Assembly (NCBI GenBank): GCA_046758445.1
Contig: JBHIAE010000056.1
Coordinates: 1-18,167, forward strand
Length of the DNA: 18,167 nucleotides
Direction of reading: 5' to 3'
DNA from: Candidatus Thorarchaeota archaeon
GTDB lineage: Archaea > Asgardarchaeota > Thorarchaeia > Thorarchaeales > Thorarchaeaceae
The notes below the pieces were generated by a model, which was not told the DNA's origin, did no database searches, and saw only the letters and a program-made list of their open reading frames with translations. The position numbers and the translations under genes were made by a program. Below, in pieces: positions 1-14,900 of this stretch (its first letter is position 1; each line of letters starts with the position of its first letter).

Positions 1-159
1 CCCAAGAAGGTCACCAAAAAGAAGGTCGAAGAGAAGAAGCCTAAGAAGGTCACCAAGAAGAAAGCCGCTGAGAAAGCGAAGCCTAAGAAGACTACTAAGA
101 AAACGACAAAGAAGACAGCGGCCAAAGAAGAGAAGCCTAAGAAGACTACGAGGAAGAAG
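1..159 (+). repeat. Degenerate coding repeat (K)PKK(V/T)T(K/R)K(K), four copies
   Basis: AAGCCTAAGAAG occurs exactly at 37-48, 79-90 and 133-144, with a partial copy at the window start. The repeats are in frame with the tail. Confidence 0.7.
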
Positions 160-168
160 GCCGCCTAA
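1..168 (+). CDS. 3' end of a gene (5'-truncated) encoding a Lys/Thr/Ala/Pro-rich, histone-H1-like low-complexity C-terminal tail
   Basis: Frame 1 reads PKKVTKKKVEEKKPKKVTKKKAAEKAKPKKTTKKTTKKTAAKEEKPKKTTRKKAA-TAA (stop at 166-168). Not in the ORF track because the start is outside the window. The parent protein cannot be identified. Confidence 0.8.
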   Translation, partial: PKKVTKKKVEEKKPKKVTKKKAAEKAKPKKTTKKTTKKTAAKEEKPKKTTRKKAA

Positions 169-225
169 GGAGAGCTCACTCTAGTCCACGATTCAGTCTT
201 TCTATCTCTATCTCCTCTAGTAATT

Positions 226-288
226 GGAAAAGAAGCAACAGGCCGCCCGCAGTCCTAGGATTTGGCCTAACGGGGGCCTTGAGTGTTG
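226..288 (-). terminator. Possible terminator between convergent genes (GC-rich stem followed by a T-rich tract on the - strand)
   Basis: AGGCC(240-244)/GGCCT(275-279) and CCCG(246-249)/CGGG(271-274) can pair. On the - strand the stem is followed by CTTCTTTTCC. A pyrimidine tract at about 197-218 could serve the + strand gene. Confidence 0.3.
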
Positions 289-302
289 AAGTCATCAATG
301 GA

Positions 303-857
303 CTACTTTTGACTCGCTATTTGGCGATCAACCTCTTCAAGCTGTGAATCAAGCTCGGTTTCCTTCGCCTTGTAGTCGTCCTCGGGGATGTAACCCCTCA
401 TGTAGTCGAACCTCAAGTCAGTAAGCGAAGCCTTCAGTCTATCCTTCTGCTGAAGCAGGAAGTCTAGCTGGTCACTACCTTCTGCCGGTGCCTCTGCCAC
501 TGGCTCAGCTGCTGGTTCAGCAACAGGTTCAGGTGCAGGTTCGGCAGCAGGTTCAGCACTAGCCTCGGCTGTAGACTCAGCAGCAGCCTCTACAGCTGGA
601 GCTGGTTCTGGAGTCGGAGCCGGCGCAGCTGGCGGTGTCGTCTGTACACTCTCCATCTGTTCCATGTTCTTTCTGAGAGTATCAATCTGTGTGGCAATCT
701 CTGTGAAGCTGTCATTTATCGTCTTGTTGATTGCAGACTTCATATTGGCTAGATTAGCCGCCAAGTCGTCGGCAATCTTCTTAGTTTCTGACACCTTCTT
801 CGCGAAGGTTTCGATTTCCTTCAGCTTCTCAGTTAGTTCACCTATATCAAAGGCCAT
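303..857 (-). CDS. Hypothetical protein: N-terminal coiled coil, Pro/Ala/Glu-rich linker, C-terminal helical hairpin (ESCRT-I core/steadiness-box- or SHOCT-like)
   Basis: 184 aa. GGTGA Shine-Dalgarno (868-864) lies 6 nt before the ATG. Heptad-like residues 1-70, a linker with AEPA/AEPV repeats, and a C-terminus LTDLRFDYMRGYIPEDDYKAKETEL matching the L-x-x-x-Y/F-x-x-G-x-I-x-x-E/D-Y/F helix-turn-helix pattern. The gene is well supported; the family is tentative. Confidence 0.8.
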   Translation of the reverse strand: MAFDIGELTEKLKEIETFAKKVSETKKIADDLAANLANMKSAINKTINDSFTEIATQIDTLRKNMEQMESVQTTPPAAPAPTPEPAPAVEAAAESTAEASAEPAAEPAPEPVAEPAAEPVAEAPAEGSDQLDFLLQQKDRLKASLTDLRFDYMRGYIPEDDYKAKETELDSQLEEVDRQIASQK

Positions 858-906
858 GAAATGTCACCTAGGCATTGCCCTTTACATGGATAGAGCAGGC
901 AGTTGG

Positions 907-920
907 TTCTTAACCTTTGC
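907..920 (-). promoter_or_regulatory. Putative BRE/TATA-like promoter for the 303..857 gene
   Basis: The - strand reads GCAAAGGTTAAGAA, about 50 nt upstream of the ATG, within a 121-bp intergenic gap. Confidence 0.3.
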
Positions 921-978
921 CGTGGTGAATATTCTGCACGATGTGGTTATTCTCAGATTTCCCAAAACGAGGCGCTGA

Positions 979-1830
979 CTATGCCGCCTTGACTTCGGCC
1001 TTCCCTTCCAGAATGGCTTTCCTGATAATCTGAATGAGCCGATCCCTGTATGAGATATCGATGGCAACAAGCTCGTAAGTGGGAATGGCCAGTATCTGAC
1101 CAACTCTCTCTGGCGTGAGAGCCGTTGGAAGGTCCTGCTTGTTAGCGATACCAATCACCTTCGCCTCGGGGACCTCCTCCTTCACTAAGGAAACAAGCTT
1201 CTTGCTTCGCAAAACATTCTCGAGAGTGCTGTCTGTCACAATGACTACGACTTGAGCATTAGCAATCATCTTCGCCCAGAGAATCGAGAACCTCGACTGC
1301 CCCGCAAGGTCCCACAATACTATGTTAGCATTCTGCACTTCTTCTGGGAGACGTTTGATACTCACACCTATTGTGGGATCATGAACCAATGGGAGAGTTT
1401 CCCCTCTGAGTAGATGTAACGTGGTAGTCTTTCCAACTCCTGCGAAACCAAGGATGGCTACCTTGACCATGGTTACTGCAATCTCATCCACTTTTGAGTC
1501 AAACCCATCAAGGGGCTGTTTCGCTGTTGCCAGATTGGCGAATTCTCGCATGAAGGTTTCAACCAGTTGGGTCATCTTGTCCTCCATCTGCACTGTATCA
1601 TCAGCCTTGTCAGCAACGAAGACAAACGTGAAGAGATCTCTTTGAGCATAGAATATTCTAGAGATGGAAACGTTCATGAACTCGGTCTTTCCCTCTAGAT
1701 CCTGGCTCTTGAGGAACTGGGCCAGATTCACCAAGAACTCAACTAGATTGGACTTGGATTCGCTCTTGGCGTACTCTTTGGAGTAGACCACATCGTCCTC
1801 TTGACCCAGAATGTAGACGCTTCTGATCAA
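979..1830 (-). CDS. Small GTPase (Ras superfamily, Arf-like) with an N-terminal longin domain
   Basis: G1 GFAGVGKTT, G2 PTIG, G3 WDLAGQ, G4 NKQDLP (Arf-type), and a switch II ending ILW. The N-terminal ~120 aa (MIRSVYILGQEDDVVYSKEY...FTFVFVADKADD...LVETFMREF) follow the beta-beta-alpha-beta-beta-beta-alpha-alpha longin pattern. The TTG start is 1 nt after the upstream TAA. Confidence 0.92.
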   Translation of the reverse strand: MIRSVYILGQEDDVVYSKEYAKSESKSNLVEFLVNLAQFLKSQDLEGKTEFMNVSISRIFYAQRDLFTFVFVADKADDTVQMEDKMTQLVETFMREFANLATAKQPLDGFDSKVDEIAVTMVKVAILGFAGVGKTTTLHLLRGETLPLVHDPTIGVSIKRLPEEVQNANIVLWDLAGQSRFSILWAKMIANAQVVVIVTDSTLENVLRSKKLVSLVKEEVPEAKVIGIANKQDLPTALTPERVGQILAIPTYELVAIDISYRDRLIQIIRKAILEGKAEVKAA

Positions 1831-1831
1831 C

Positions 1832-2938
1832 TTACTCGCTCCAAGTCTGAATTAAAAGCTCCAAATATCTTCTTGCTGTATCAGGGTTTATCTTCTTCTC
1901 TTCAAGCTTTCTCGTGAGTATAGGCAGGATATACTCGGGAAAGAAGACGTCCATTCTAGGGTCAGTAATTAGAGCCCAGACATCCTCCTTCTCAAAGTGG
2001 GCCGCGATTCTCTCCGCCTCCATGGCCCACAGAGCATTCTGTACTACCGCTTCAGGAAATGACGTCATTTCAGAGATATCCTTGACACTCATCGGTTTCG
2101 TTCTCAAACTCTTGAGAACTTCATACTGTATTGTGTTTGACAAGATTCGGGAGATCTTCTCTCTGTCCTCTAAAATGGGAGAGTTCGGGTCATCAATGGG
2201 AAGTGTTGGATTGTATCCTCCTCCAGGGGGTTCTGGTGTGAAGAAGTTGGAAACATACTCCATGTATTCTTGGACGATTCCAGGAACTGTTTCTGAGGCC
2301 TTTGCGTAAGACTCCTGGGGTGGAGCCCTATGTGCAAACACGTCCTTTAGCAGGAATGCTGTTTCTAAGGTCTTCCCTACTAGCTCCACCTTCACTAGAC
2401 CGGAATCCATAAGCGGCGTAATTGCTTCAACCAGGTCAACAGAATCGGTCTGGACTTGGCTCTTTAGCCACAGAGAGAGCTTCGCTGTGCTCTCAACACC
2501 TTCTGTGTGTAGTCGTTCTAGCAGAAGTGCAGTTGATGGTGTCAGGTAGATCTGAGCACATCTCTGTTCGCTAGTTATTGTTGGCATTGAACTCCTGCTA
2601 CTCAGAATCTCTCCTAGGTCCACAGAATCAGGATCCTGACTCATGAGCTCAAGCATGAAACGGCCCATCCCTGAAATCTCGTCCCTGACTTCTTCAAGTA
2701 GCTCGTCAGGACTGAGTACGAATCCCACAGTCCAGCCTGGGTAAGCTCCCATTGTGAATGAGGCTATCCGCATTCCTTCAGCTTCTAGTTCCGTGATATC
2801 CTTCTTCTCCCCCTTCTGGTGCTCATAGAACACTAAGTTCAGAGCCTTCTCAGTTAGTGTTAGGGATGAAGGATGACGCTTCTTGACGATGAATCCCTGA
2901 TAGTCGTCCAAATGGACAATGAAGGCGGCTTCTGGCAT
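1832..2938 (-). CDS. Longin/uDENN-like N-terminal domain plus two predicted winged-helix domains (NPRL2/DENN-like architecture); putative GTPase regulator
   Basis: The N-terminus AFIVHLDDYQGFIVKKRHP resembles the hhhh-x-F/L-D-x-x-x-G-x-x-h-x-x-x-x-P opening of uDENN/NPRL longins, followed by RIASF and TVGFVL strands. wHTH-like segments are LLLERLHTEG...LMDSGLVKVE and YEVLKSLRTKPMSVKDISE...LWAMEAERI. ATG 2938 is preferred; the ORF extends to GTG 2971. Confidence 0.7.
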   Translation of the reverse strand: MPEAAFIVHLDDYQGFIVKKRHPSSLTLTEKALNLVFYEHQKGEKKDITELEAEGMRIASFTMGAYPGWTVGFVLSPDELLEEVRDEISGMGRFMLELMSQDPDSVDLGEILSSRSSMPTITSEQRCAQIYLTPSTALLLERLHTEGVESTAKLSLWLKSQVQTDSVDLVEAITPLMDSGLVKVELVGKTLETAFLLKDVFAHRAPPQESYAKASETVPGIVQEYMEYVSNFFTPEPPGGGYNPTLPIDDPNSPILEDREKISRILSNTIQYEVLKSLRTKPMSVKDISEMTSFPEAVVQNALWAMEAERIAAHFEKEDVWALITDPRMDVFFPEYILPILTRKLEEKKINPDTARRYLELLIQTWSE

Positions 2939-3222
2939 TTGACTTTCCCATCTCGGCAAGACAGTCTCCACATAAATGTGTGACCATTATGTATTCACCA
3001 TACGTCATTGACCCCTCGGGTCTGGCCTTCTTCTAAGTGATTTACGCACTTCTACCCTCTACTCCCCACAGTGGTCACAATATGGATCTAGGACTCTCCT
3101 ATTCCGTGTCATGGCTTACATTCCTAATGCTGAAACTGCCCCGATACCTGTAGAGAATACCGTGGCCATGCGTTAGAAAGGATGAAAAGGGTTTCCTCGG
3201 TTCTCGAATACGGTGGGCTCCG

Positions 3223-5529
3223 ATGGACCTTGAGAGCGAAGTCCTCATAGTTCCTGCGACTGCAACACGCAGTCTTCAGCTGGCAGGAGGCCCACCAATG
3301 GAACAGGCAGTCCCTGAGGACTATGCGCTCGCTGTCTTTGCACTAAGGGCCTTAGATGAGCGGAATGGGAATGAACTTGAGTTTCTCCTCAAAGCGTACT
3401 TCCCGGTGCTTGTAGTCGAATCTTCCGTTCCTAACCAGTACTTCCTGATTGAGCTTCTTGGAATCAGCTCTTCGAAGCTGACGCCCATCAGCAAGACTGA
3501 CACATCTGTGCTCGGGAACGTTATTGAATCCCTAAAGGCATCTGAAAGTATAATGACGTGCATTGAAGATGCTCGTCGAGCACTAGAGTCGATTAGAAGT
3601 GCCAAAGAGCTGACTATTCTGGGACTGGTGTCAGGCTCTCTCGCGGACGGAATTGGAAAGACCATGCACTGGCCTTCGCGGAGCTATGTTGAGCCTTATG
3701 CTGTCTTGCTCCCTGAGGTGATTTCGAAGAGCCAAGCAGGTGAACAGTCTGTCACTCTTCAGGAAACTTCTTGGGCTTCAGAACACGCTAAAGGTCTAGT
3801 ATCGGACTTGTGGAATACCGTTCACACAAGAACCACAGGAGAGATTGGCTCACGTGAAGCGGAGATTTCAGAAGCTTCATCGAGGCTTGAGCAGAGAATC
3901 GAGGTCCTTCGAAAGGAAGTAGATAACCTTCAATTCCGCATGGCACAGAAACGAGGTGGAGAAGCCGAGGAACTCAAGAGAACCAGAGATGCAAGGATGG
4001 CGGCCCTCAAAAGGGATGAGTCCCGGCTGAAGAGCCTTCGAGACCGTACGGATAATGCATCGAGAGAGCTGCTAGAACGCAAGGAGCAGCTCGGCAAGGA
4101 TATTGAGGATGTCAAGGTGGAATTGGTTCGTGTGCAAAGTGCTCTCAACGAGATACTCGTTCCGGGAGGTGGTATTGAGATTGAGAACACTACAGCCCTC
4201 CTTCTCATGCCTTTCATTGTTGCTGGGTTCTCAAAGAAGGGTAGACTGCGAGTTTCAGTGTACCCACCATCTAGGTTCATGGATGAACTTCAAAGAGTTG
4301 GACGTCGTCGTGAGTTCGTCGACGTCCTGGAACCTGCATCTCCCATAGCAAGCTACCTCGCTGGAGTTCTTGCAGAACGAGCCAATAGCGACGTCGGTCT
4401 TAGGAAGACGCTTCGTGATTCTTCACGTGACCGGAATCTTCTCGGATCAATGGGAGCTCGCAAGCTGATCCGGGAAGGAGTGCAATCATTGATTTCTGAC
4501 GGATTCGCAAAGAAATCCATTCAGGAAGATCTGGAAACACTTCTGGCTGGAATTCCTGAAACCAAACTGAAACCGGATCGCCGAGTAAGACCAAGAGTCG
4601 TGTCTGCCAAGGACGGAATGTGCGAGGTCAAGTTCCATGTTCATGATGACTCTGGTGCTTCAATCATTCGTGCAACTGTTGAGTTAGGTGTCTTCAAGGC
4701 TAAATCTGATTCCAAAGGGGTTGTGAGAGCTTCGTTGCCTAGAAGCAGCTATGAAGGTCATGTTTCAGCATTTGGCTTCAAAGATAGAACAATTGAGTTT
4801 ACTCTGCGTTCAGCGGATGATGTAGTGATACCTATCGTCCTAAGCCCCCTAACGAAAGAGGAAGTGCTTGACCAAGAGCTCGACCGACTGGTGGAAAGAG
4901 CACGGCGCATAGAACAGATACGCGAACGGCTTTGGGAAGCCTTCGAGAAACAAGGCTCAACGCTTCTCACGATTCCCGCGTACAGGAGTGCACTGGTGGA
5001 TCTACTCTCTGAGCTTGGATATGAACCGGAGGCCTGGATAGCTCAAGCCAAGAAGAGGCGAGGAATGGTCAAAGGTCTTCTAAAGCGCGATGACAGAACT
5101 GACAGGATTCGCAGAGACATACTTCGCCTGGCTGAGGACTCGAAGCAGGCAGGAGGAATAATGCTTCTATCCGAGCTTCTTGTGCGTCTTGATAGAATGG
5201 GTTGGGCCACTAGTCAGGATGAAACTGAAAAGATCCTTGATGACATGTCGAAAGAGGGCCTGGTTCAAGGCACAACGAAGCTTGAGAGCGGTGCTTTGCT
5301 TGTAAAGTTCGTTCCGGTTTCTCTCACTAGTGACCCCCAGCAGATTCTAAGTCTTGCATCGAGCAGAGATGGTAAGATTACCATTGAAGATGCCGTTGTA
5401 AACCTCGGGTGGAATGAAGAGCGAGTCAGAATTGCGTTGGACCTGCTTGTCGAAAATGGAGTAGCCAAGGTCCAGAAGAGTTACTCGAAGAGTACCCAGT
5501 ATTGGTTCCCTGGACTTCGAAAGAAATAA
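3223..5529 (+). CDS. Multidomain ESCRT-II Vps22/Vps36 (EAP30)-domain protein: N-terminal alpha/beta region with coiled coil, carboxypeptidase-regulatory-like beta-sandwich, C-terminal tandem winged helices
   Basis: aa ~547-768 carry Vps22/SNF8 hallmarks in the correct order: IPAYRSALVDLLSELGYEP, GGIMLLSELL, VKFVPVSLTSDPQQILSLA, LGWNEERVRIALDLLVENGVA and the terminal YWFPGL. aa ~467-541 (VKFHVHDDSGASIIRATVEL...SDSKG...YEGHVSAFGF) are a transthyretin-like sandwich. aa ~190-310 are coiled coil. No signal peptide or TM segment is visible. Confidence 0.88.
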   Translation: MDLESEVLIVPATATRSLQLAGGPPMEQAVPEDYALAVFALRALDERNGNELEFLLKAYFPVLVVESSVPNQYFLIELLGISSSKLTPISKTDTSVLGNVIESLKASESIMTCIEDARRALESIRSAKELTILGLVSGSLADGIGKTMHWPSRSYVEPYAVLLPEVISKSQAGEQSVTLQETSWASEHAKGLVSDLWNTVHTRTTGEIGSREAEISEASSRLEQRIEVLRKEVDNLQFRMAQKRGGEAEELKRTRDARMAALKRDESRLKSLRDRTDNASRELLERKEQLGKDIEDVKVELVRVQSALNEILVPGGGIEIENTTALLLMPFIVAGFSKKGRLRVSVYPPSRFMDELQRVGRRREFVDVLEPASPIASYLAGVLAERANSDVGLRKTLRDSSRDRNLLGSMGARKLIREGVQSLISDGFAKKSIQEDLETLLAGIPETKLKPDRRVRPRVVSAKDGMCEVKFHVHDDSGASIIRATVELGVFKAKSDSKGVVRASLPRSSYEGHVSAFGFKDRTIEFTLRSADDVVIPIVLSPLTKEEVLDQELDRLVERARRIEQIRERLWEAFEKQGSTLLTIPAYRSALVDLLSELGYEPEAWIAQAKKRRGMVKGLLKRDDRTDRIRRDILRLAEDSKQAGGIMLLSELLVRLDRMGWATSQDETEKILDDMSKEGLVQGTTKLESGALLVKFVPVSLTSDPQQILSLASSRDGKITIEDAVVNLGWNEERVRIALDLLVENGVAKVQKSYSKSTQYWFPGLRKK

Positions 5530-5575
5530 GACGCGCCTCACATGCCTTCTTCTTTACAAGAGAGGAGTCTTGTCC

Positions 5576-6361
5576 ATGAATCGACTATCGCATATGGTCT
5601 TCGCCTTCTCGCTGTTTGTAGCTCTCTATACTCTTGTCTATGCGTACAGCGTTTGGCTGGACTTCCCAGGGCAACTGTTTGATTTGTTGTTCTACTACGT
5701 GGCAGGTGGGATCATTCTAACACTTGTGGCCGTGCCAATACTCTATTGGAAGGCCCCACACAAGGAAAAGCCCGGGCGTACGATTGGCAACAAAGGTGCA
5801 GTGGGAGCCATGTCCTTTGTTACTTTCTGCGTGGGCTCTCTGGGTGGCGCTGTTGTATACCAGTATATCAGTGGGATCTTAATCATTGGTGACCTCAGCA
5901 TCTTCATCGGTTCGCTGATCATTGTAGCAGGCGCCCTTATGCCCGACTGGGACATCCCCTTCTTGGGCATCTCGAGACATCGGAACATCGTCTTTCATTC
6001 TGTCATTCTACCATTCCTAGCCGTGCTTTTGACGCTGATCAACGTTGCTCAGAGCATTGCGTCAACATACTCCTTAGCTATTGGCGCACACATCGAGTTC
6101 TACGTAACCGCGCTTTTCCTAATCGGCTATGCCTCTCATCTGTATCTTGACATCTTTCCCAGTGATGCCAATGCCCTCGAGCTAGTCTGGCGGACCGTTG
6201 ATGTCACTAGCGAGGCTCCGACTGGTCTGAAGCCACTTGGCCCCATCAAGATTTCAAAGAAGAATGCACGAATGTGGCTGGTTAGCAACGCAACGCTTCT
6301 TGTCTTGGTCGCTGCTGGACTAATGGGCCTTTACTTCTACAATCTGGCAATCTTGCCTTGA
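5576..6361 (+). CDS. Multi-pass membrane metal-dependent hydrolase (YdjM/DUF457-like)
   Basis: Family motifs: N-terminal His (NRLSH), GALMPDWD, RHRNIVFHS, GYASHLYLD; about seven hydrophobic segments. SD GAGGAG (5562-5567) is 8 nt before ATG 5576, which is preferred over TTG 5570. Confidence 0.85.
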   Translation: MNRLSHMVFAFSLFVALYTLVYAYSVWLDFPGQLFDLLFYYVAGGIILTLVAVPILYWKAPHKEKPGRTIGNKGAVGAMSFVTFCVGSLGGAVVYQYISGILIIGDLSIFIGSLIIVAGALMPDWDIPFLGISRHRNIVFHSVILPFLAVLLTLINVAQSIASTYSLAIGAHIEFYVTALFLIGYASHLYLDIFPSDANALELVWRTVDVTSEAPTGLKPLGPIKISKKNARMWLVSNATLLVLVAAGLMGLYFYNLAILP

Positions 6362-6415
6362 ACAAACGTAGATTCGCCCATCCGGCAGTACGAAACGAGA
6401 AGTCAAAGAGCGTGC

Positions 6416-6694
6416 CTAGTCCCACTCTTCGAAACTGTCGTCACTCTCAAGGGCATCTCTCTCAGGAGGCAAGTCGCTCTCATCGATGTCCTCTTCGTCA
6501 TCTTCGAACAGGAAGGTGTCTGAGTCATCCTCTACCTCCGTCCGTGCCCGACTCTTCTTTGCTTTCTTCTTGAGATGTCCGGCCATGCAGAGGTAGTCTA
6601 TTGAGTCAAAATGCTCACACTCAGGACAACACTCGCCCTTGTTGTTGCAGGTATAGAAGGCCCCGCAGATTTTGCAACACTTTAGCTCCGACAC
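6416..6694 (-). CDS. Small Cys-rich (putative Zn-binding) protein with a basic patch and an acidic C-terminal tail
   Basis: From GTG 6694, 92 aa: CCKIC-x5-C-x5-CCPEC-x9-C-x3-H, then KKKAKKSRAR, then a D/E-rich tail ending SDDSFEEWD. It fills the gap between two + strand genes and has a strongly non-random composition. The start is uncertain (the ORF extends to ATG 6757). Confidence 0.72.
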   Translation of the reverse strand: MSELKCCKICGAFYTCNNKGECCPECEHFDSIDYLCMAGHLKKKAKKSRARTEVEDDSDTFLFEDDEEDIDESDLPPERDALESDDSFEEWD

Positions 6695-6774
6695 ATTTGC
6701 GCACCAAGGGAGTTGGTAAATTGCGTATGCGGACGCACGGTTATGCCAAATAAGCATGTCTCTAGGGCCTAGGG

Positions 6775-6783
6775 TTTTAAATG
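6775..6783 (+). promoter_or_regulatory. TATA box of gltX
   Basis: TTTTAAATG ends about 25 nt upstream of TTG 6809, consistent with an archaeal leaderless or short-leader transcript. Confidence 0.5.
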
Positions 6784-6808
6784 AATGTCACGTTGATTTG
6801 TTCCTGAG

Positions 6809-8560
6809 TTGTTTACTTTGGCTGAGTTTGAGCTTGAGATACGAAAGCATGTGCTTGACAACGCTGTGAAATACGGCGGAAAGGCAACTGTCAAGTCTGT
6901 CATGAGTGCCATAATGGGCACGCATGCAGAGCTGAGGTCTCGAGCACAGGAGGTCAAAGTAATTGTTGAGCGATTGGTCGTGGAAATAGGGAAGATGACT
7001 GTCGATGACCAGCGCGATGAACTCATGCAGCTTGCCCCAGAAATGCTTGAGACTGTTCCAGAAGATCTCGAAGAGCCCAAAGAGCTTCCTGCTCTTAGTA
7101 ATGTTGACAAATGGCCCAAGGTCGTCATGAGACTTGCTCCCTTCCCGTCAGGTCCACTTCACATTGGAAACGCCAGGATGGTAGTACTGAACGACTACTA
7201 CGTGAAGAGGTACGAAGGCGAGCTTATTCTTGTCTTTGATGACACAATAGGCTCTGCTGAGAAGGTCGTTGAACCTGAGGCATTCGACTTGATTCCGAAG
7301 GATCTGGAATACCTCGAGGTGGAGTGGCACAAGACCGTCTACAAGTCAGACCGCCTAGAGTTGTTCTACAAGTACGCAGTAGACTTGATCAAGAAGAACG
7401 AGGCCTATGTGTGCGACTGTGACGCTGATGTCTGGAGAACCGAACACAAGGCCAAGGGAAAGGCATGTCACTGTAGTATTCTGCATACTGATGACAATCT
7501 GGCTCGATGGAAGAAGATGCTTGACGGCACGTATCCTGAGAGGGGCGCGGCAGTCCGCTTTCGAACAGGAATGACTGATCCCGACCCTGCTATGAGGGAC
7601 CATGTGATTCTCAGAATATCTGAAGCTGAGCATCCTCGAGTAGGAACAAAGTACAGAGTATGGCCACTACTAGAATACTCCTGGGGTATCGACGATCACG
7701 AGCTAGGCATTACTCACATCATAAGAGGCAAAGACCTTGTGAAGGAAGGTAAGATCGAGCAGCATATCTGGAACATCTACGGGTGGCAACATCCTGAGCT
7801 CATCTACTACGGTCGCTTGAAGTTCGAAGACGCCAAGCTGAGCAAGAGCAAGTCTCGAAAAGAGGTCCTTGATGGAGTCTACACAGGGTGGGATGACCCG
7901 CGAACATGGAGCATGCAATCTCTCGCAAAACGTGGTATTCATCCTGATGCCGTGCGGAAGGCGATGTTGGACCTTGGCCTGAGTATTGTGGACATCTCAA
8001 TATCCATGAAGAGCGTGTATTCAGAGAACAGGAAGCTTCGCGATGCAGAGGCTCCAAGATTGTTCTTCGTGAGGTCACCCGTTTGGATTTCCCTCACCGG
8101 ACTTCCACCAGAGGTCCTTGAGGCTGAAGCCCCAGTTCATCCTGACTTTCCGGATAGAGGAGTGCGTCACATCAATCTAGGGCGCCCGACTGACACCGAT
8201 GCTCCTGTCATCATCGGAATCGCTGAGAAGGACCTAGAGCGTCTATCTGATGGAGACTTGTTCAGACTGAAAGACCTAGCAAACTTCAAGCTCAAGAAAG
8301 GGAAGAAACCAAGGGCAACGTTCCACAGTATCGAAGTGGACAGCGTAAGGGCGGCCGGGGGCTCCATTATTCATTGGGTGCCGAAGGAGAACGCGGTCCC
8401 TGTGGAAGTGACTCTGATTGACGGCGAAGTAGTGTCTGGCCTGGGGGAGCCTGGTATCAGAAACATCCAGCAGGGGACATTTCTGCAGTTCGAGCGTGTC
8501 GGCTTTGCCCGGGTGTACGAGGTCGGAGACCCTGTAAGAGCGGCCTTTGGGCACAAATGA
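6809..8560 (+). CDS. gltX: Glutamate--tRNA ligase, archaeal type (probably non-discriminating)
   Basis: RLAPFPSGPLHIGNAR (HIGH motif), AYVCDC...CHC, THIIRGKD, LSKS (KMSKS equivalent), YTGWDDPR, QFERVGF, and the archaeal N-terminal helical domain (NAVKYGGKA). The start is TTG 6809 or TTG 6818. Confidence 0.97.
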   Translation: MFTLAEFELEIRKHVLDNAVKYGGKATVKSVMSAIMGTHAELRSRAQEVKVIVERLVVEIGKMTVDDQRDELMQLAPEMLETVPEDLEEPKELPALSNVDKWPKVVMRLAPFPSGPLHIGNARMVVLNDYYVKRYEGELILVFDDTIGSAEKVVEPEAFDLIPKDLEYLEVEWHKTVYKSDRLELFYKYAVDLIKKNEAYVCDCDADVWRTEHKAKGKACHCSILHTDDNLARWKKMLDGTYPERGAAVRFRTGMTDPDPAMRDHVILRISEAEHPRVGTKYRVWPLLEYSWGIDDHELGITHIIRGKDLVKEGKIEQHIWNIYGWQHPELIYYGRLKFEDAKLSKSKSRKEVLDGVYTGWDDPRTWSMQSLAKRGIHPDAVRKAMLDLGLSIVDISISMKSVYSENRKLRDAEAPRLFFVRSPVWISLTGLPPEVLEAEAPVHPDFPDRGVRHINLGRPTDTDAPVIIGIAEKDLERLSDGDLFRLKDLANFKLKKGKKPRATFHSIEVDSVRAAGGSIIHWVPKENAVPVEVTLIDGEVVSGLGEPGIRNIQQGTFLQFERVGFARVYEVGDPVRAAFGHK

Positions 8561-8624
8561 CCGCAATGTCCTGCGGCCAAAGAGAACAAATAGCTGGTAG
8601 CAAAGACTCTACTGGGTGTCAGGT

Positions 8625-9377
8625 TTGGCAAAGAAGAAGAAGTCTGCGAAGTCTAGGCTCTCAGCATCGATGTTCAAGACAACCGGTGCCCACGCCAAGA
8701 TGAAGATTGACAGTAAGAAGAAGAAACAGTACTACTTTACGGCGAAGGTGAAGCCCGAGAAGGCTCGAAAGACAGCCACCAAAGACGGTGCGGAGATCTT
8801 GGGTGTGCCATCGAGCGCGGTCAAGGTGAGCAAGCCAGCTTTGAAGTATGATTTCTACTGCATGTACGATGCACTTCTAAACTTGAAGTTCTTGCGGCTC
8901 CGAAAAGAGGAACTCAGCGTAAATGACCAGGTTTCAGGTGCTCTCATAGGCAGAGATGTAGTCCCTCCTCGGAAGGGCAAATCGATACCGGGGAGCGCAC
9001 TCCGTTTCGATGTAGTCGAGCTGTTTGAGATTGAACGGACTGACGGAATGACAGTCGATGGTAGGACAGGTGGCCCAGCTCACGCCGTGGAGAAGCTGCT
9101 GAAACGTGGAGGTAAGAAGAAAGCAACTCCTGCATGGGTGAGGAAGAACAGGGTCTCACCGGGGAAGTTCAACTCGGTTGAGAAGGTAGTCCGTGCGGTC
9201 TCGAAATTAGCAGGACAAAAGCCATCGGGTGCGAAGCGTATTGTCGAGCATGTTCTGAAGTTCAAACAGCTTGATGGGTTCTATCTGCCTACCTATTATG
9301 TCAAGGTGGCAGCTGGAGCTAAGTCACAGATGCTCCGTGTGAACGGTCTGAATGGTGCAGTCTCCCTTGCTGTTTGA
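8625..9377 (+). CDS. Highly basic hypothetical protein with internal two-fold repeat
   Basis: About 250 aa open frame filling the gltX-thiI gap. Hand count is about 39 Lys and 15 Arg against about 20 Asp+Glu. The two halves end in TVDGRTG and RVNGLNG, preceded by YDFYCMY and FYLPTYY. TTG 8625, which follows GGGTG, is preferred over GTG 8616. Confidence 0.8.
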   Translation: MAKKKKSAKSRLSASMFKTTGAHAKMKIDSKKKKQYYFTAKVKPEKARKTATKDGAEILGVPSSAVKVSKPALKYDFYCMYDALLNLKFLRLRKEELSVNDQVSGALIGRDVVPPRKGKSIPGSALRFDVVELFEIERTDGMTVDGRTGGPAHAVEKLLKRGGKKKATPAWVRKNRVSPGKFNSVEKVVRAVSKLAGQKPSGAKRIVEHVLKFKQLDGFYLPTYYVKVAAGAKSQMLRVNGLNGAVSLAV

Positions 9378-9466
9378 TACATGATAGTACGTTCAGACAC
9401 TGAGAAGCCATTTCAGAAGCCTTATTGCACTAGCCAACGACGGGATGCTGCCCGGTGGTGGCAAAG

Positions 9467-10651
9467 ATGGAACACGAATACTCGGCGGTTCTCCTGCGAT
9501 ACGGCGAGATTGGTATCAAGTCAAAGCAGACGCGCCGCAGGATGACGGACCTGCTGGTCAAACACATTCGTTCAGCTCTCAGAGAGAAACAGGTCAAGTT
9601 CTCTAAGGTTAGAAAGGAGTACGGACGAATCTTCGTTGAGTCCAAAGATGTGGACAATGCCGCCAAAGTCGCATCTCAAGTATTCGGAATCGTGTCGGCG
9701 TCTCCAGTGGTTGTCTTACCAGCTCAACTTGAAACTATCATCGAAACGGGTCAAGCGATGGCGAGCAACTCCTTCGAGAAGGGCCGCTCCTTTGCTGTCG
9801 GCGCAAGACGGATTGGCACTCACGAGTTTTCGAGTCAGGACATTAGAGAGGAACTTGGCGCGCGAATCCTAGACGGTCTGCCTGACTTGGAACTAAGAGT
9901 AGACCTGACGTCCCCTGAACAGTCAATCTATGTGGAGGTACGGGACGAGAGCGCTTACCTCTTCACTGACACTATTCAGGGAGTAGGAGGAATGCCCACA
10001 GGCTCACAGGGTAAAGTAGTATGTGCCCTGTCAAGCGGTTTCGATTCGCCCATTGCTGCCTATAGGGTGATGAAACGAGGCTGTATCCCTGTCTTTGTCA
10101 ACTTTGACAACGCTCCATATGCCGATGACTATTGTAGTGAGCTTGTAGTCAAGCAAGCACAACGCTTGGCAGACTTCATCCACAACTTTGATGTCAAGCT
10201 TTACATTATACCTCATGGTGCCGACCTGAAGGAGGCTGTTGAGCACGGTCCTCCAAAGATGACTTGCGTGTTCTGTAAGAGAAACATGCTTCGAATGGCC
10301 AGAGAGATTGCGATTCGGGAGGATGCTGATGCTATCGTTACGGGGGAGATCATCGGAGAGCAAGCCTCACAGACCACGAGGAACCTCCGTACCATCAATA
10401 CAGCTGTCTGCGACTTTCCGATTCTTAGACCCTGTGCCGGAGATGACAAGAATGAGATCGAGGCCATGGCACAGAAGATAGGGACCTACGAGTTTGCCTA
10501 CGAAGGCCTCTCATGTTGTTCACTCGCTCCAAAGCATCCTGTGACAAGGGTACAACCCGACGAGGTCATTGCGGCTGAGCAGAAGATGGGCTTGGGCGTA
10601 TTAGTGCAGCAGGTGGAAAGCGCGCGCATCATGACTCTTCGTACAGGCTGA
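9467..10651 (+). CDS. thiI: tRNA 4-thiouridine(8) synthase ThiI (THUMP + PP-loop, no rhodanese domain)
   Basis: LLRYGEIGIKS, THUMP region (SFAV...IREELG...VDLTSPE), GVGGMPTGSQG, PP-loop SSGFDSP, CVFCKR, GEIIGEQASQT, IGTY...CC...PKHPVT. ATG 9467 follows GGTGGTGG; the ORF extends to GTG 9455. Confidence 0.95.
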   Translation: MEHEYSAVLLRYGEIGIKSKQTRRRMTDLLVKHIRSALREKQVKFSKVRKEYGRIFVESKDVDNAAKVASQVFGIVSASPVVVLPAQLETIIETGQAMASNSFEKGRSFAVGARRIGTHEFSSQDIREELGARILDGLPDLELRVDLTSPEQSIYVEVRDESAYLFTDTIQGVGGMPTGSQGKVVCALSSGFDSPIAAYRVMKRGCIPVFVNFDNAPYADDYCSELVVKQAQRLADFIHNFDVKLYIIPHGADLKEAVEHGPPKMTCVFCKRNMLRMAREIAIREDADAIVTGEIIGEQASQTTRNLRTINTAVCDFPILRPCAGDDKNEIEAMAQKIGTYEFAYEGLSCCSLAPKHPVTRVQPDEVIAAEQKMGLGVLVQQVESARIMTLRTG

Positions 10652-10741
10652 AGCTAGACTTTCCTCTCTCTCTAGAGGTCCTGATTGAGGCAGAAAGGCC
10701 CTATGAGCCCTCCAAAGAAATCAATGAGCGATGTGAGAGAT

Positions 10742-10749
10742 TTTAAATA
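10742..10749 (+). promoter_or_regulatory. TATA box of the histone gene
   Basis: TTTAAATA preceded by purine-rich GAGAGA, about 40 nt upstream of the start. SD GAGGAG is at 10776-10781. Confidence 0.6.
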
Positions 10750-10790
10750 CGGTGCGAATACAGTCTGACGACTAAGAGGAGAGAGCACCC

Positions 10791-11027
10791 TTGCCGAGGT
10801 CAAAGAAGGACAGAATCATCCCTGTTGCACCAGTTGATCGGCTGATAAGAAAAGCCGGAGCCGGACGTGTGAGTGACAAGGGCGCAGAGAGACTGGCGCA
10901 CATACTGGAGGAGATTGGTGAGAGCCTCGCGAAACGGGCATACGAACTCACTGAACATGCCGGTCGAAAGACAATAACTGAGAAGGACATGGACCTCGCA
11001 TACAAGCAATGGGCTCGTGGGAACTAG
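10791..11027 (+). CDS. Archaeal histone (HMfA/HMfB family)
   Basis: IPVAPVDRLIRKAGAGRVS...LAHILEE...HAGRKTITEKDMDLA is the canonical archaeal histone fold. The TTG start has an SD 9 nt upstream. Confidence 0.97.
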   Translation: MPRSKKDRIIPVAPVDRLIRKAGAGRVSDKGAERLAHILEEIGESLAKRAYELTEHAGRKTITEKDMDLAYKQWARGN

Positions 11028-11108
11028 GGTCCTCAAAATACCATCATTAGATAAAGTGAAAGGAGTCCTCGCAGTAGCCTTTGACATGGGAGTGGAAGGA
11101 GGGATAGA

Positions 11109-11798
11109 GTGAAGGATTCCGTCGTGGATGTGAAAGACCAGACTGCAATCATTTCCTTGCACGATGTTTGTCCCACTTTCGAAGATGACGTTGTAGCATC
11201 GTGTGACCGACTTGCTGACTTGGGTGTCTCAAGCTTCACTTTGCTTGTTATTCCGATGTATGCTCTGAAGAAATCCCACAGCTTCGAGCGGTTTCCGATT
11301 TTCTCTGAGTATCTTCAATCGCTCAATCTTGAAATCTCTATCCACGGGTATAGCCACTTCACAAAGTCCGGTTCCATGAACGAGTTCGCAAGAATGGACT
11401 CCGAACGCGTAGATTCCCGAATAATGTCTAGCAAACGCATTGTTGCCACAGCTCTTGGTCAGGAACCATACGGTTTTGTCCCTCCACTCTGGCAGGCTCC
11501 AAAAAGAGTCACGAAGGCGGTTAGGAAAGCAGGTTTGAATTACTGTGTCATCAGAAACAAGATCTATTCTTTCCTGGACTCGCAGATACTGAAGACGGCA
11601 GACACTCTTGTGAGCCAAGGAGTGAAGGGGACCTCATTCGCCGGTTCTCTATTAGAGATTGAGCTTGGTGGTCCAGTGCAGCTTGCACTGCATCCCCGTG
11701 ACTATGAAGAAACACAGGTGTTTGACCTAGTGGAAGATATGAAGGACCGGCTCGGGTACAGGTTCATTGGGTATAGGGACCTCCTCAGTACTCAGTAG
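11109..11798 (+). CDS. DUF2334 / NodB-like (CE4) polysaccharide deacetylase family protein
   Basis: Motifs ISLHDVCP, EISIHGYSH, GFVPPLW and LALHPRD. GTG start after a GGAGGGA SD. No signal peptide. Confidence 0.85.
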   Translation: MKDSVVDVKDQTAIISLHDVCPTFEDDVVASCDRLADLGVSSFTLLVIPMYALKKSHSFERFPIFSEYLQSLNLEISIHGYSHFTKSGSMNEFARMDSERVDSRIMSSKRIVATALGQEPYGFVPPLWQAPKRVTKAVRKAGLNYCVIRNKIYSFLDSQILKTADTLVSQGVKGTSFAGSLLEIELGGPVQLALHPRDYEETQVFDLVEDMKDRLGYRFIGYRDLLSTQ

Positions 11799-11994
11799 AT
11801 TCTCACGAGTCCTGCACTACAAACTCTGTGCACCGATAAAACGAAGAGCCGTTCTTCCTGAAGAAACAATCCGCACGCCATTAGTTATTATGCTGTCGAC
11901 TTTCTCTGATATGAATGCGTGCACACCACACCTAACCCGTGTAGTGTCGACAAACAATAGCAAAACTCCAGTGTAAACTAGGAGGTCGCTCCGC

Positions 11995-14900
11995 ATGAGG
12001 AAAACTGGACTAATAGTTGTCTTCATCATTATTCTATTCATAGCCCCGTCCGCGTATACCCCACAGATGATGCCTACCTTGGACGGAGGATCCCGACCAG
12101 TGGAGTCTGGCCCAACATCAGCTGACGGAGGTTATCCTCTGAGCACAGGTACAGGCCAGGCGCTCACCACGCATATTCTCGGCACGGTCGTCAATGGGAC
12201 AGAAGTGCCGGTACAGATTGACACTGACAATATGGCAGTTGGAACGATAGGGATCACAGGGGACTACGCGGGCACAGGAATAGGAGCGACACTCGATACA
12301 TTCACAATGACAGTTCCTAATGCCCTGCGCAACCCTGACTTGAATGATTGGCACGAAGAGAGATGGCATGTTGGTGACCCTACCTTCTACGATGACAAGG
12401 TAGCCATACCTGACTCTTGGACACTCGTCAAATCAATCTCAAACCCATCGGAGAGTCCACATCCCCACCACGGTGACTGGGAGTTCAATGACGGTGGAGG
12501 TGGATATGCCGGCAGCCGAGGATTCAGGTTCGATGCCACGCTACCAACTGGCTACCTATTGACCTCCACGGATAAGATTTACATCAGTCAACATGTCCAT
12601 GCGCCTTGGCGTGACCTGTACTCGGCAACGATAAGGTTCCAGTACTATGTGAGAGCGGCCTCACAAATGGGCGACCTGGTACATCTCTTCACAAGATTTG
12701 CAGGAGTCGAAACACAGTTCCGTGTGTTCGAGTCGGGAGATACAAAGGACACATGGTTGCCAGCGATCGTCGAAATACCTTCCTCCTCGCTAACGTCAGT
12801 AAACCTTCCGGACTCCTTGCTCTTCGAGATTGGGCTCGGTACGAATTTCGACGGTATCACAGCCACTGGTCCAGACGAGTACGTCTTCATCGACGAGATT
12901 GAGCTTGAACTTGAGGTTCGCCCGTTCCCCGAGCAAGTCGGTCTTCGGGTCAATGGGACAGAGGTAGTCGGCTCAACTCCTGGAAGTACTTTCCCATTCG
13001 TTCCAGATGATATCACAGGTGATACTGGAAGGGACTGCTGGGACGACACTTCAGGCATCGACCTCGACGGCTACGACAATGATGGCAACCTCGAGGTCGG
13101 CATTTGGGGGACCGATTGGCTCACGTCGAATCCGTTTGAGGTTGGACTTCAGTTCCGACTTGACATTCCGCAGGGAGCAGTCATCGAAAGAGCCTATCTT
13201 GAAACGGAAGCCTCAGGGCAGCAGAATCTAGTGGATAGACGAGTGCATATTGCCGGGGAGAATTCCTCCGGTTTGCCTGTCGATCCGTTCGAGAACCACC
13301 TGGGCTTGCACCTTGAAGATGAGTTCAACTGGATCCAAACAAGCATCGATTGGCAACCAGACTACTGGACTAGTGACGTCAGATATTCTTCACCGGACAT
13401 AGCTCCACTTCTCCAGAAGGTCGTCTCTAATAGCGACTGGGCAGCAGGTCAATATGTGGCTATAATGCTCAGCTACGCTTGGTCAAGCTCGTATCAATCT
13501 CGGAATGATCTCAAAGGTTCGAATCATCCCTCATGGAACAACTATACTCAAGATGAAATGGCTCGTTTCTATGTATGGTATCGGATTCCACATTCGGATG
13601 ACGTCATTCCTACGAATGAAGACTTCGCAAGAAACTCGCTTCAGTTTAGGAAGGACATAACAATTGACAGCGCGAAAGTCACAGAGGATCTGTCAGACTT
13701 CCCGGTCTTGATTGACCTTTATGACACAGATTTGAGAACTGACGTACGACCTGATGGTGAGGATATCGCCTTCATTGTCGGCGGGCAGTTTGTTGAACAT
13801 GAGGTTGAGCTCTTTGAGCAGGACTACAACACTACACATGCCCATCTGATTGCATGGGTGAAGATTCCCAGTCTCTCATCGTCGGTCGACACCGTGATCA
13901 CTATGCTCTATGGGAATCTGATAGTGACAGGACTCCAGTCTTCGGGCGTTTGGGATGGCTACGAAATCGTTCAGCATATGAATGATAATCCAAATGGCAT
14001 AAGCTACGATAGCACGTACAATCATCACAGCGGGCCGTCATTTGGAAGCATGACCATTGGCGATCTTGTACCGGGAGCAATAGGAAATGCTACTGACTTT
14101 GACGGCCAAGATGACGTGATAAGCGTCGGACAGATTGAAACAGACGATTGGCCTAGCTTCACTGTGAGCGGTTGGATATACCACGACGTTTCTGGGGACG
14201 ACAGAGTCTTTTCGAAGGCCCCTAATACGAATGAGGCTAATGCAATCATCCACTTCGCCGTAGACGATACCGACAAGTTCAGAGTGAGAATGAACACTGA
14301 CGGCGTTGGCGGCGGCGCATCATTGTCCGTCGACAGCATCGGTTTCACCGCTCCAGGATCGTGGTACTATCTTACATGGAGCTGGAGTGCTGCAACCGAG
14401 GAGATGCGACTTCACATCAATGGAACCTTTGACCGGACTGCCGCTCGAGATGGCGACACAGTGCTGAACTCATATGTGCCGTTTGTCATAGGCAATTGGC
14501 AGACTGGCACAGGTAACAATCGATTCTTCGACGGGATGATCGATGAGATACGAATGACCACAAGAGTGCTGTCTGATGGATGGATTGCCACTGAGTATGC
14601 AAACCAGAAAAGCCCATCTAGCTTCTATCTGGTTGGCCCGGAGCAGACAAGTTCAGGCTTGCCTGACATCAAGTCTGCTGCACTTGTCTTCTCCTCAGAA
14701 TCACCAATACCAGTCAGTATTGGCTTCACGATGAGTATGGACTTCGAAGGGACTGGTAAGTCGCTTGATGAGAATCTTAACGAGGGAACCACCTTTTATG
14801 CCACTAATGGGAGTTCAACAGTCGAGTGGACGGCCAAGGTTCTGGTGTCACCCCCGCCTGGTATCACACAGACTGAGGTGTACGTTGAATATCCGGCTAC

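Follow-up and report, generated by a model that had tools for sequence, protein, structure and literature searches.

We describe a pair of adjacent genes from a Candidatus Thorarchaeota archaeon (assembly GCA_046758445.1, contig JBHIAE010000056.1, positions 1 to 18,167, a stretch of 18,167 nucleotides referred to as the window), whose products are a 368-aa protein with an NPRL2-like fold, termed UP as the upstream member of the pair, and a longin-fused Arf-like GTPase of 283 aa. Genomic evidence speaks strongly for a functional pair, and we lean towards regarding both products as a dedicated, physically interacting partner-GTPase pair of Thorarchaeota, encoded in a translationally coupled operon. 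UP would most likely serve the Arf-like GTPase encoded with it as its cognate regulator or adaptor of longin type, with the two proteins forming one complex in which UP would set or read the nucleotide state of the GTPase, and in which the acidic winged helices and the conserved linker of UP would dock further partners. We infer the physical binding, its geometry, with a heterodimer of the two longins among the options, and which way regulation runs, that is, whether UP is a GTPase-activating protein (GAP), a guanine nucleotide exchange factor (GEF) or an effector. The term UP family refers in what follows to the relatives of UP, represented by an alignment of 67 sequences. Both genes lie on the minus strand, with the UP gene first and the GTPase gene second, and their parts are the following.

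1832 to 2938, minus strand: UP gene, 368 aa, NPRL2-like; ATG start, stop TAA at 1832-1834 (open reading frame (ORF) and translation)
2585 to 2938, minus strand: longin domain of UP, aa 1-118 (order of secondary-structure elements in the AlphaFold2 (AF2) model, structural matches, column counts)
2318 to 2584, minus strand: winged helix 1 of UP, aa 119-207 (AF2 model; MarR/MecI-like matches)
2177 to 2317, minus strand: two helices and a conserved proline-rich linker of UP, aa 208-254 (alignment of orthologues)
1835 to 2176, minus strand: ArsR-like winged helix 2 of UP, aa 255-335, and C-terminal helices, aa 336-368 (CzrA/ArsR matches)
1831, minus strand: single spacer base between the UP stop and the GTPase start (sequence; junctions of 56 loci)
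979 to 1830, minus strand: longin-fused Arf-like GTPase gene, 283 aa; TTG start, stop TAG at 979-981 (ORF and Pfam Arf)
1477 to 1830, minus strand: longin-type domain at the N-terminus of the GTPase, aa 1-118 (AF2 element order; weak in-register sequence matches)
982 to 1476, minus strand: G domain of the GTPase, aa 119-283 (motifs GFAGVGKT, PTIG, WDLAGQ and NKQD; alignment)

At the junction, minus-strand bases 1834-1828 read TAA-G-TTG, so that the coordinates and the one-base spacing given in the initial annotation of this DNA hold. A GGAG lies 9-12 bases 5' of the GTPase TTG, within the 3' end of the UP gene. The UP frame itself is open beyond its ATG up to a GTG at 2971; however, the ATG was taken as the start because orthologues, which begin M-P-E at the ATG, keep M1-P2.

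The tight coupling of both genes is a conserved feature of Thorarchaeota. Homologues of both proteins were found in metagenome-assembled genomes of this group, namely, 164 matches for UP, of which the best 120 share 51-92% identity with it, and 1025 matches for the GTPase, of which the best 120 share 82-95%. A scan of species-representative genomes yielded 61 loci, 56 of them with both genes, whereas the other five break off at the UP gene or no more than 79 bases from it. In every one of the 56 loci that reach far enough the GTPase starts -8 to +2 bases from the UP stop, with offsets of -4 (32 loci), +1 (11 loci), -8 (nine loci), +2 (two loci) and -1 (two loci), and since this spacing is kept in 56 out of 56 loci it is not due to chance. 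The position of the GTPase start is likewise supported, because these orthologous loci align at the first codon, which is ATG in 26, GTG in 16 and TTG in 14 of them, with a protein that always opens M-I-R. Across these loci the GTPase is 70-100% identical and UP is 44-92% identical.

The same association is seen within the source genome and in the phylogenies of both proteins. First, a census of the source genome, covering 7030 ORFs of at least 80 aa, revealed three UP-family genes and 19 small-GTPase matches, four of the latter with a longin N-terminus. Three of these four longin-GTPases lie directly 3' of the three UP-family genes, as opposed to none of the 15 plain GTPases. Second, maximum-likelihood trees of 16 pairs, with rows picked from the loci in hand and unpaired UP-family members left out, recover the same five groups for both proteins, with ultrafast bootstrap and SH-like approximate likelihood ratio (UFBoot/SH-aLRT) supports from 91/86 to 100/100. 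Because both trees show the same five groups, the pair was duplicated and inherited as a unit, through several ancient duplications. Thus, the tight coupling proposed by the initial annotation is upheld, as that of a conserved and co-inherited unit.

These observations also bear on two readings in which UP would not be a partner of the GTPase in the sense proposed here. The accessible text of a 2026 preprint (10.64898/2026.10.19.760177) proposes immunity roles for winged helix-turn-helix proteins that are fused to profilin-longin-like domains and encoded beside NTPases such as ParA, and the present locus might be a conflict or immunity module of this kind, in which profilin-longin-like and winged helix-turn-helix parts are combined with an NTPase, ParA or MglA; alternatively, the genes might be neighbours by chance, with no functional link. 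However, the UP family is present in 153 of the 201 sampled genomes of the phylum, and in all 43 sampled genomes of the source genome's family besides the source genome; gene order is stable over the 56 loci, with the strong conservation of the GTPase noted above; and the congruent trees speak against chance adjacency. A PADLOC scan returned winged-helix and coiled-coil noise only, with nothing meaningful. An immunity role is unlikely at this locus because of this core-like conservation and the empty PADLOC scan, and we regard both the immunity module and the chance neighbourhood as very improbable.

The downstream protein is indeed a longin-fused Arf-like GTPase, as initially annotated. Pfam Arf matches residues 121-269 with 69.7 bits, against a cutoff of 22.3; its best solved relatives in the PDB are Arl1 and Arf1 (around 1e-15); and a single-domain Foldseek search is led by Arl1, the Asgard protein GerdArfR1 and Arf1. 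All G motifs are intact (GFAGVGKT, PTIG, WDLAGQ and NKQD), including the catalytic Gln178, and the G domain is nearly invariant in Thorarchaeota, with a mean pairwise distance of 0.06 and a conservation of 0.89. An Arf-type N-terminal amphipathic helix is not there in this protein, and a longin-type domain of 118 aa stands in its place. In the AF2 model, which has an overall predicted local distance difference test score (pLDDT) of 77, and of about 70-90 for residues 1-118, this domain consists of strands 2-8 and 14-19, helix 26-40, strands 50-54, 57-64 and 67-74, and helices 79-96, 98-102 and 110-118. Its longin topology was read from the whole-protein model, the structure search having covered the longin of UP, and finds weak in-register sequence support in Pfam Clat_adaptor_s (E 0.09) and AP-2 sigma (E 0.25).

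Rag GTPases have a C-terminal roadblock domain, whereas the GTPase of the pair ends about 20 residues past its G domain and lacks this mark of the Rag/Gtr class. Pfam Gtr1_RagA gave no match to it at E up to 1, and its match to one paralogue, at 9e-4, does not reach the cutoff; paralogous GTPases also match Pfam SRPRB weakly. As a separate observation, two further longin-GTPases of the source genome, at G000 C6:26125-27888 (minus strand) and C28:5607-7547 (plus strand), are longer by about 300-360 residues at the C-terminus (587 and 646 aa, respectively); the former is paired with a UP-family gene, and the latter has none nearby.

The fold of UP was assessed from an AF2 model built with the alignment of 67 relatives (pLDDT 91.4; predicted template modelling score 0.88). 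The modelled architecture comprises a longin domain (1-118), a winged helix (119-207), helices plus linker (208-254), an ArsR-like winged helix (255-335) and two terminal helices. The longin elements, strands 4-11 and 15-22, helix 30-42, strands 48-53, 56-61 and 69-75, and helices 81-101 and 108-114, follow the order strand-strand-helix-strand-strand-strand-helix-helix, and the N-terminal helix of a roadblock domain is missing, as it is from the N-terminus of the GTPase. In a Foldseek search of the PDB with the UP model, the top nine matches are all GATOR1/SEAC chains, that is, NPRL2/NPRL3 and Npr2/Npr3, with E from 1.2e-4 to 7e-3 over 342-462 alignment columns, but with template modelling (TM) scores of 0.19-0.24 and root mean square deviations of about 20 Å. 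Chains of Mon1-Ccz1, Fuzzy-Inturned, DENND10, BLOC-3, C9orf72-SMCR8 and FLCN-FNIP appear lower down.

With VIA-align, in which rows within one Z unit count as ties, residues 1-116 of UP match solved longins with Z of 9-10.4: the dimeric Lokiarchaeota longin 8yqg_B (10.4), NPRL2 (10.0-10.3; 10.1 for 8fw5_B), TRAPP subunits of the Bet5/Trs23 type (10.1), DENND1A (9.3), sedlin (9.1-9.3) and VAMP7 (9.0). The alignment reaches into winged helix 1 for some chains only (171 aligned residues, Z 10.3). Thus, at the fold level UP is fairly described as a longin combined with winged helices that is most like NPRL2/NPRL3. The initial annotation had named the lack of a longin fold at the N-terminus of UP as one ground on which its reading would fail, and this fold is borne out by the element order together with Z of up to 10.4. 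Its statement that both proteins begin with a longin-type domain therefore stands, for UP by model and structure matches, and for the GTPase by AF2 topology with weak sequence support. The likening of UP to NPRL2 also stands, given that the best full-length structural matches are NPRL2/NPRL3, whereas the label DENN-like is not retained: beyond the common longin fold, the AF2 model has no central or downstream DENN part.

Winged helix 1 of UP has MarR/MecI-like structural matches (Z about 7.5) and is the most conserved folded domain in Thorarchaeota orthologues, with a mean top-residue frequency of 0.79. Between the two winged helices, aa 234-254 (window positions 2177-2239) form the linker FTPEPPGGGYNPTLPIDDPNSP, consensus FFSPPPPNKGYNPTLPVDDPNSP, which is the most conserved stretch in these orthologues (0.89). 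Modelled at lower confidence (pLDDT 68-81), with F233 and Y242 kept family-wide, the linker may be a docking motif. Winged helix 2 has CzrA/ArsR/SmtB structural matches (Z about 9) and a profile match to PH1932 (E 6e-4), and among the names of UP homologues there are one 'ArsR family transcriptional regulator' and two 'predicted transcriptional regulator'. UP could on these grounds be taken for an ArsR-type winged-helix transcription factor, whose longin would sense the GTPase or a ligand. However, the winged-helix domains are acidic, with isoelectric points of 4.8 and 5.2, and the helices at the recognition position, EAVVQNALWAMEA and LVEAITPLMD, contain neither Lys nor Arg, which argues against DNA binding by UP; moreover, the C-terminus of giant surface-type proteins, to which relatives of UP are fused (see below), would be an odd site for a DNA-binding factor. 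We give this transcriptional reading hardly any credence.

To return to the interacting pair, the form in which its geometry was initially conceived is that the longin of UP heterodimerises with the longin fused to the GTPase, yielding a GAP or GEF platform of the GATOR1, FLCN-FNIP or C9orf72-SMCR8 type, half of which would be supplied in cis by the client GTPase itself. Several lines of evidence are consistent with this special case. First, domains of longin topology open both proteins; solved longin regulators are dimers on which the GTPase sits, according to the accessible text of PMC10933270; and the best structural match of the UP longin is itself a dimeric Asgard longin, 8yqg_B. Second, in the source genome the UP family pairs only with longin-bearing GTPases, as counted above. 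Third, the UP longin carries the family motif [W/L]10-D11-x3-G15 ... [K/R]21-[Y/H]22-P23, with W10 in 40, L10 in 22, D11 in 57, G15 in 65 and P23 in 66 of the 67 sequences. The [W/L]D-x3-G part is located at the β1-β2 turn, with G15 at the start of β2, and together with D11, G15 and P23 the residues H40, S60, L75 and E79 make up a set of family-wide conserved positions, part of which cluster on the longin. The GAP-type longins FLCN, NPRL2, SMCR8 and C9orf72 are described as having a specific GP motif where β2 starts, which in C9orf72, the non-arginine subunit, is G38-P39 and is preceded by W33-D34 (PMC12290439, in the portion available). The spacing of W/L10-D11...G15 in the UP family equals that of W33-D34...G38. 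Fourth, R58 of the GTPase, at the start of β4 of its longin, is at least 90% conserved in alignments A3 and A4.

A number of results weigh against an NPRL2-like regulator that binds its GTPase, and several of them against the longin-longin geometry in particular. To start with, the likeness to NPRL2 is confined to the fold. UP gave no significant Pfam, NCBIfam or PDB match besides a weak winged-helix signal; Pfam NPR2/NPR3 were absent from its scan at E up to 1; a phmmer search of the PDB returned no match with an E of 10 or less; and a profile of the 67 relatives, searched in the PDB with the same limit, reached only ArsR-type winged helices and no chain of NPRL2/NPRL3. A search of the ESM Atlas with UP matched only archaeal clusters without names. 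The structural matches of the NPRL2 type have, in addition, TM of about 0.2 and Z within one unit of many other longins.

The conserved residues of UP are similarly ambiguous. The residue that follows G15 is a proline, as the GP motif would have it, in only five of the 67 sequences, compared with F in 22, V in 12 and A in 11, and Thorarchaeota orthologues have L rather than W at position 10. The expected basic residue reaching the nucleotide pocket is not conserved family-wide at the β3-β4 turn of UP: position 57, just after the turn, is N in 28, R in 15, K in nine and S in nine of the 67 sequences, and these hold no family-wide conserved arginine anywhere in the longin, R21 and R93 being invariant among Thorarchaeota orthologues only. 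On the side of the GTPase, R58 is replaced by D or K in two paralogues.

None of the binding tests succeeded. Prediction of the complex of full-length UP and GTPase gave scores of 0.01 and 0.07 against a mark of 0.32, with the controls not folded, and counts neither for nor against binding. In an exploratory domain-wise distance correlation over 44 complete loci, whose sequences are related to each other and for which the divergent neighbour gene served as a proxy of phylogeny, no excess of covariation was seen between the two longins (partial r -0.15 with the neighbour gene controlled), whereas winged helix 1 of UP and the G domain gave a partial r of +0.31. An hhalign comparison of the two longins was collinear but not significant, with a probability of 4.4%. 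Weighing both sides, together with the fact that UP-family members that have no adjacent longin-GTPase retain the same conserved longin residues, we consider the longin-longin platform a tentative possibility that none of these tests supports.

The genomic contexts of UP relatives in other Asgard families bear on the pair in both directions. Of 20 regions fetched from further families, six speak in its favour, with a longin-GTPase directly adjacent on the same strand (downstream in five, upstream in one). Three hold a GTPase that has another kind of N-terminus and is transcribed divergently, and the other 11, which count against the pair, have no GTPase within about 3 kb. Likewise, none of the 30 best-scoring loci of families f9 and f24 has a downstream GTPase within the approximately 0.3-1.5 kb available per locus, and one of them has a divergent longin-GTPase. 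In five of six such loci inspected (GC content of 30-38%), the UP-family gene begins where a giant ORF, itself open at the locus edge, ends, or else overlaps that end. A search of a representative library further identified UP relatives as modules at the C-terminus of proteins 1330-2548 aa long, and four of six of these fused giants that were scanned have Laminin_G_3, DUF2341 or CarboxypepD_reg matches. The UP family is therefore not tied to GTPases everywhere, given these giant-protein contexts that have no adjacent GTPase. The two kinds of context are linked by locus L101, in which a giant ORF, a UP-family gene and a longin-GTPase overlap head to tail. The pair as a minimal ancestral form of the eukaryotic complexes, as first suggested, is a conjecture; in other families the relatives of UP are instead coupled or fused to giant proteins of surface type.

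Two further arrangements were noted outside Thorarchaeota. In another Asgard family, stand-alone proteins of 148-160 aa that match only the longin part of the UP family (E 3e-27) are encoded just upstream of a full-length UP-family gene (L098:4396-4878 and L100:4370-4816, both on the minus strand), which may amount to a pairing of two longins with no GTPase. In family f12 (L111:2543-5283, minus strand) the order is reversed, with the longin-GTPase first, followed by a UP-family member of 580 aa that has a 53-aa N-terminal and an approximately 160-aa C-terminal extension.

A different role for UP would be that of a non-catalytic effector or adaptor. Just as SR-alpha uses its SRX longin to bind the Arf-like SR-beta, UP could bind one nucleotide state of its GTPase, with winged helices and linker coupling the switch to other proteins, such as the coiled-coil protein encoded downstream (see below) or giant surface-type proteins. 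In agreement with this, the structural matches of the UP longin include 7obq_y and 2go5_1, both SRX longins (VIA-align Z of 8.3-8.6), no arginine is conserved family-wide in this longin, and the relatives of UP are coupled, or C-terminally fused, to giants with Laminin_G_3, DUF2341 and CarboxypepD_reg, with the overlapping series of L101 reading as giant ORF, adaptor and GTPase. The linker and winged helix 1 are, moreover, the most conserved parts of UP, and it is winged helix 1 that covaries most with the G domain. However, the conserved D11, G15, P23, H40 and S60 cluster on the longin and include a motif resembling that of GAP-type longins, direct evidence for any of the proposed partners is lacking, and the analogy with SR-alpha and SR-beta is backed here by a fold match only. 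We hold a purely adaptor-like UP to be somewhat unlikely.

It is tempting to speculate further. Under such a scenario, the pair would be a two-protein form, still extant, of longin GAP complexes such as GATOR1, FLCN-FNIP and C9orf72-SMCR8, in which the client GTPase bears one longin of the catalytic platform in cis and UP brings the other, with its WD-x3-G site of C9orf72 type. Since in other Asgard families the UP-type adaptor is joined, by coupling or fusion, to giant proteins of surface type, the module would pass what happens at the cell envelope on to a small-GTPase switch, and it would represent an archaeal forerunner of receptor-to-GTPase signalling at membranes. We deem this full scenario distinctly unlikely.

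Two neighbouring genes accompany the pair in most Thorarchaeota loci.

303 to 857, minus strand: gene of a 184-aa coiled-coil protein (translation; conserved position 3' of the GTPase)
3223 to 5529, plus strand: 768-aa neighbour gene, divergent (Pfam; CarboxypepD_reg-like and EAP30/Vps22-36-like part)

The 184-aa protein consists of coiled coils around a middle part rich in Pro, Ala and Glu, with weak CdvA-like and GvpG matches. Its gene lies downstream of the GTPase in 53 of the 61 loci, the other eight ending first, and a relative of 110 aa follows the pair in L102, from another Asgard family. The coiled-coil gene is probably a third member of the unit. In the 768-aa neighbour, a coiled coil occurs together with a CarboxypepD_reg-like domain and, C-terminally, a part like EAP30/Vps22-36; its N-terminal 440 aa resemble only archaeal proteins without names. 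In the ESM Atlas, the single match shown by features is its own Thorarchaeota cluster, and the matches by structure are weak, with a TM by query of at most 0.45. It occurs in 55 of the 61 loci, four loci being without it despite a full upstream flank, and it was not found beside the pairs from outside Thorarchaeota. Its link to the pair is uncertain. We also considered this protein as a DEPDC5-like third subunit and rejected the idea, given its absence beside non-Thorarchaeota pairs and no sign of homology.

At the far end of the window, 9 kb from the pair, lies a giant ORF (11995 to 18165, plus strand) that is open at the window end and encodes at least 2057 aa with Laminin_G_3 and DUF2341. 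The same domain types are found N-terminal to UP-family modules in the fused giants of other Asgard genomes; a link between this ORF and the pair is only a thought.

The interest of the pair lies in that Asgard genomes encode dozens of small GTPases together with longin and roadblock proteins, among which regulators and their GTPases need to be matched. An operon that is coupled in every Thorarchaeota locus reaching far enough, and whose members have diversified together, names concrete candidate regulator-GTPase pairs, three of them in the source genome. If UP is a GAP or a GEF, regulation of GTPases by longins would have existed in working form before eukaryotes; if it is an adaptor to surface proteins, this would point to a different, non-eukaryotic use of the same parts.

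As to what has been reported before, both protein families have already been described, and their conserved, co-diversifying pairing is matched by no characterised complex. Asgard 'NPRL2-like proteins' and 'Rag family GTPases with a fused longin domain' were reported by Liu et al. (bioRxiv 10.1101/2020.10.19.343400), and longin-GTPase fusions of a Rag-like/Arf-like class by Tran et al. 2024 (PMC10933270). As far as the accessible text of both goes, these are the same architectures from the same lineage as the pair described here, and the present GTPase, an Asgard protein whose longin precedes its small GTPase domain, is such a fusion; yet in those portions the two families are treated separately and their encoding as a coupled pair is not mentioned. 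Our literature search found no description of the coupled pair, the figures, supplements and Nature version of Liu et al., where a neighbourhood may be drawn, having been outside its scope. The accessible text of PMC10933270 also states that in MK-D1 the GTPase genes are generally outside operons with roadblock, longin or TRAPPC3 genes, and that this rarity of operons hampers the matching of GTPases to their GAPs or GEFs; which GTPases partner the GAP-like longins of Asgard archaea is a question posed, in the portion available, by a 2025 Traffic paper (PMC12290439).

Among characterised systems, UP invites comparison with NPRL2-NPRL3 (Npr2-Npr3), the part of GATOR1/SEACIT that acts as a GAP for RagA/Gtr1. 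NPRL2-NPRL3 and, as modelled, UP have a longin N-lobe before a C-lobe, although the full-length alignments to GATOR1/SEAC chains have TM of only 0.19-0.24; the UP longin matches NPRL2 with the Z of 10.0-10.3 given above, and UP has a conserved Gly at the start of β2, where GAP-type longins have their GP motif. However, UP does not belong to these families at the sequence level, and its longin holds no family-wide conserved arginine that could correspond to the catalytic Arg78 of NPRL2 (Arg84 of Npr2). It is, moreover, a single subunit rather than a paralogous pair, no DEPDC5-like subunit was identified here, and the client is an Arf-like GTPase with an N-terminal longin.

C9orf72-SMCR8 (CSW) and FLCN-FNIP, GAPs for Arf and RagC, respectively, are related to the pair in that a longin dimer constitutes the catalytic platform and, for CSW, in that the client is Arf. 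Chains of both complexes are among the structural matches of UP, and the spacing of W33-D34...G38 of C9orf72 is shared by the UP family. They differ in that UP has winged helices instead of the central and downstream DENN parts and, in the case of C9orf72, in that Thorarchaeota UP has L10 in place of W and that Pro follows the Gly in only five of 67 sequences. Finally, in the SRX domain of SR-alpha with the Arf-like SR-beta the likeness is one of mechanism only, and no features of the receptor for the signal recognition particle are present here; it is nevertheless a case in which a longin binds a GTPase of the Arf family, with SRX longins among the structural matches of UP and weak SRPRB matches in paralogues of its GTPase.

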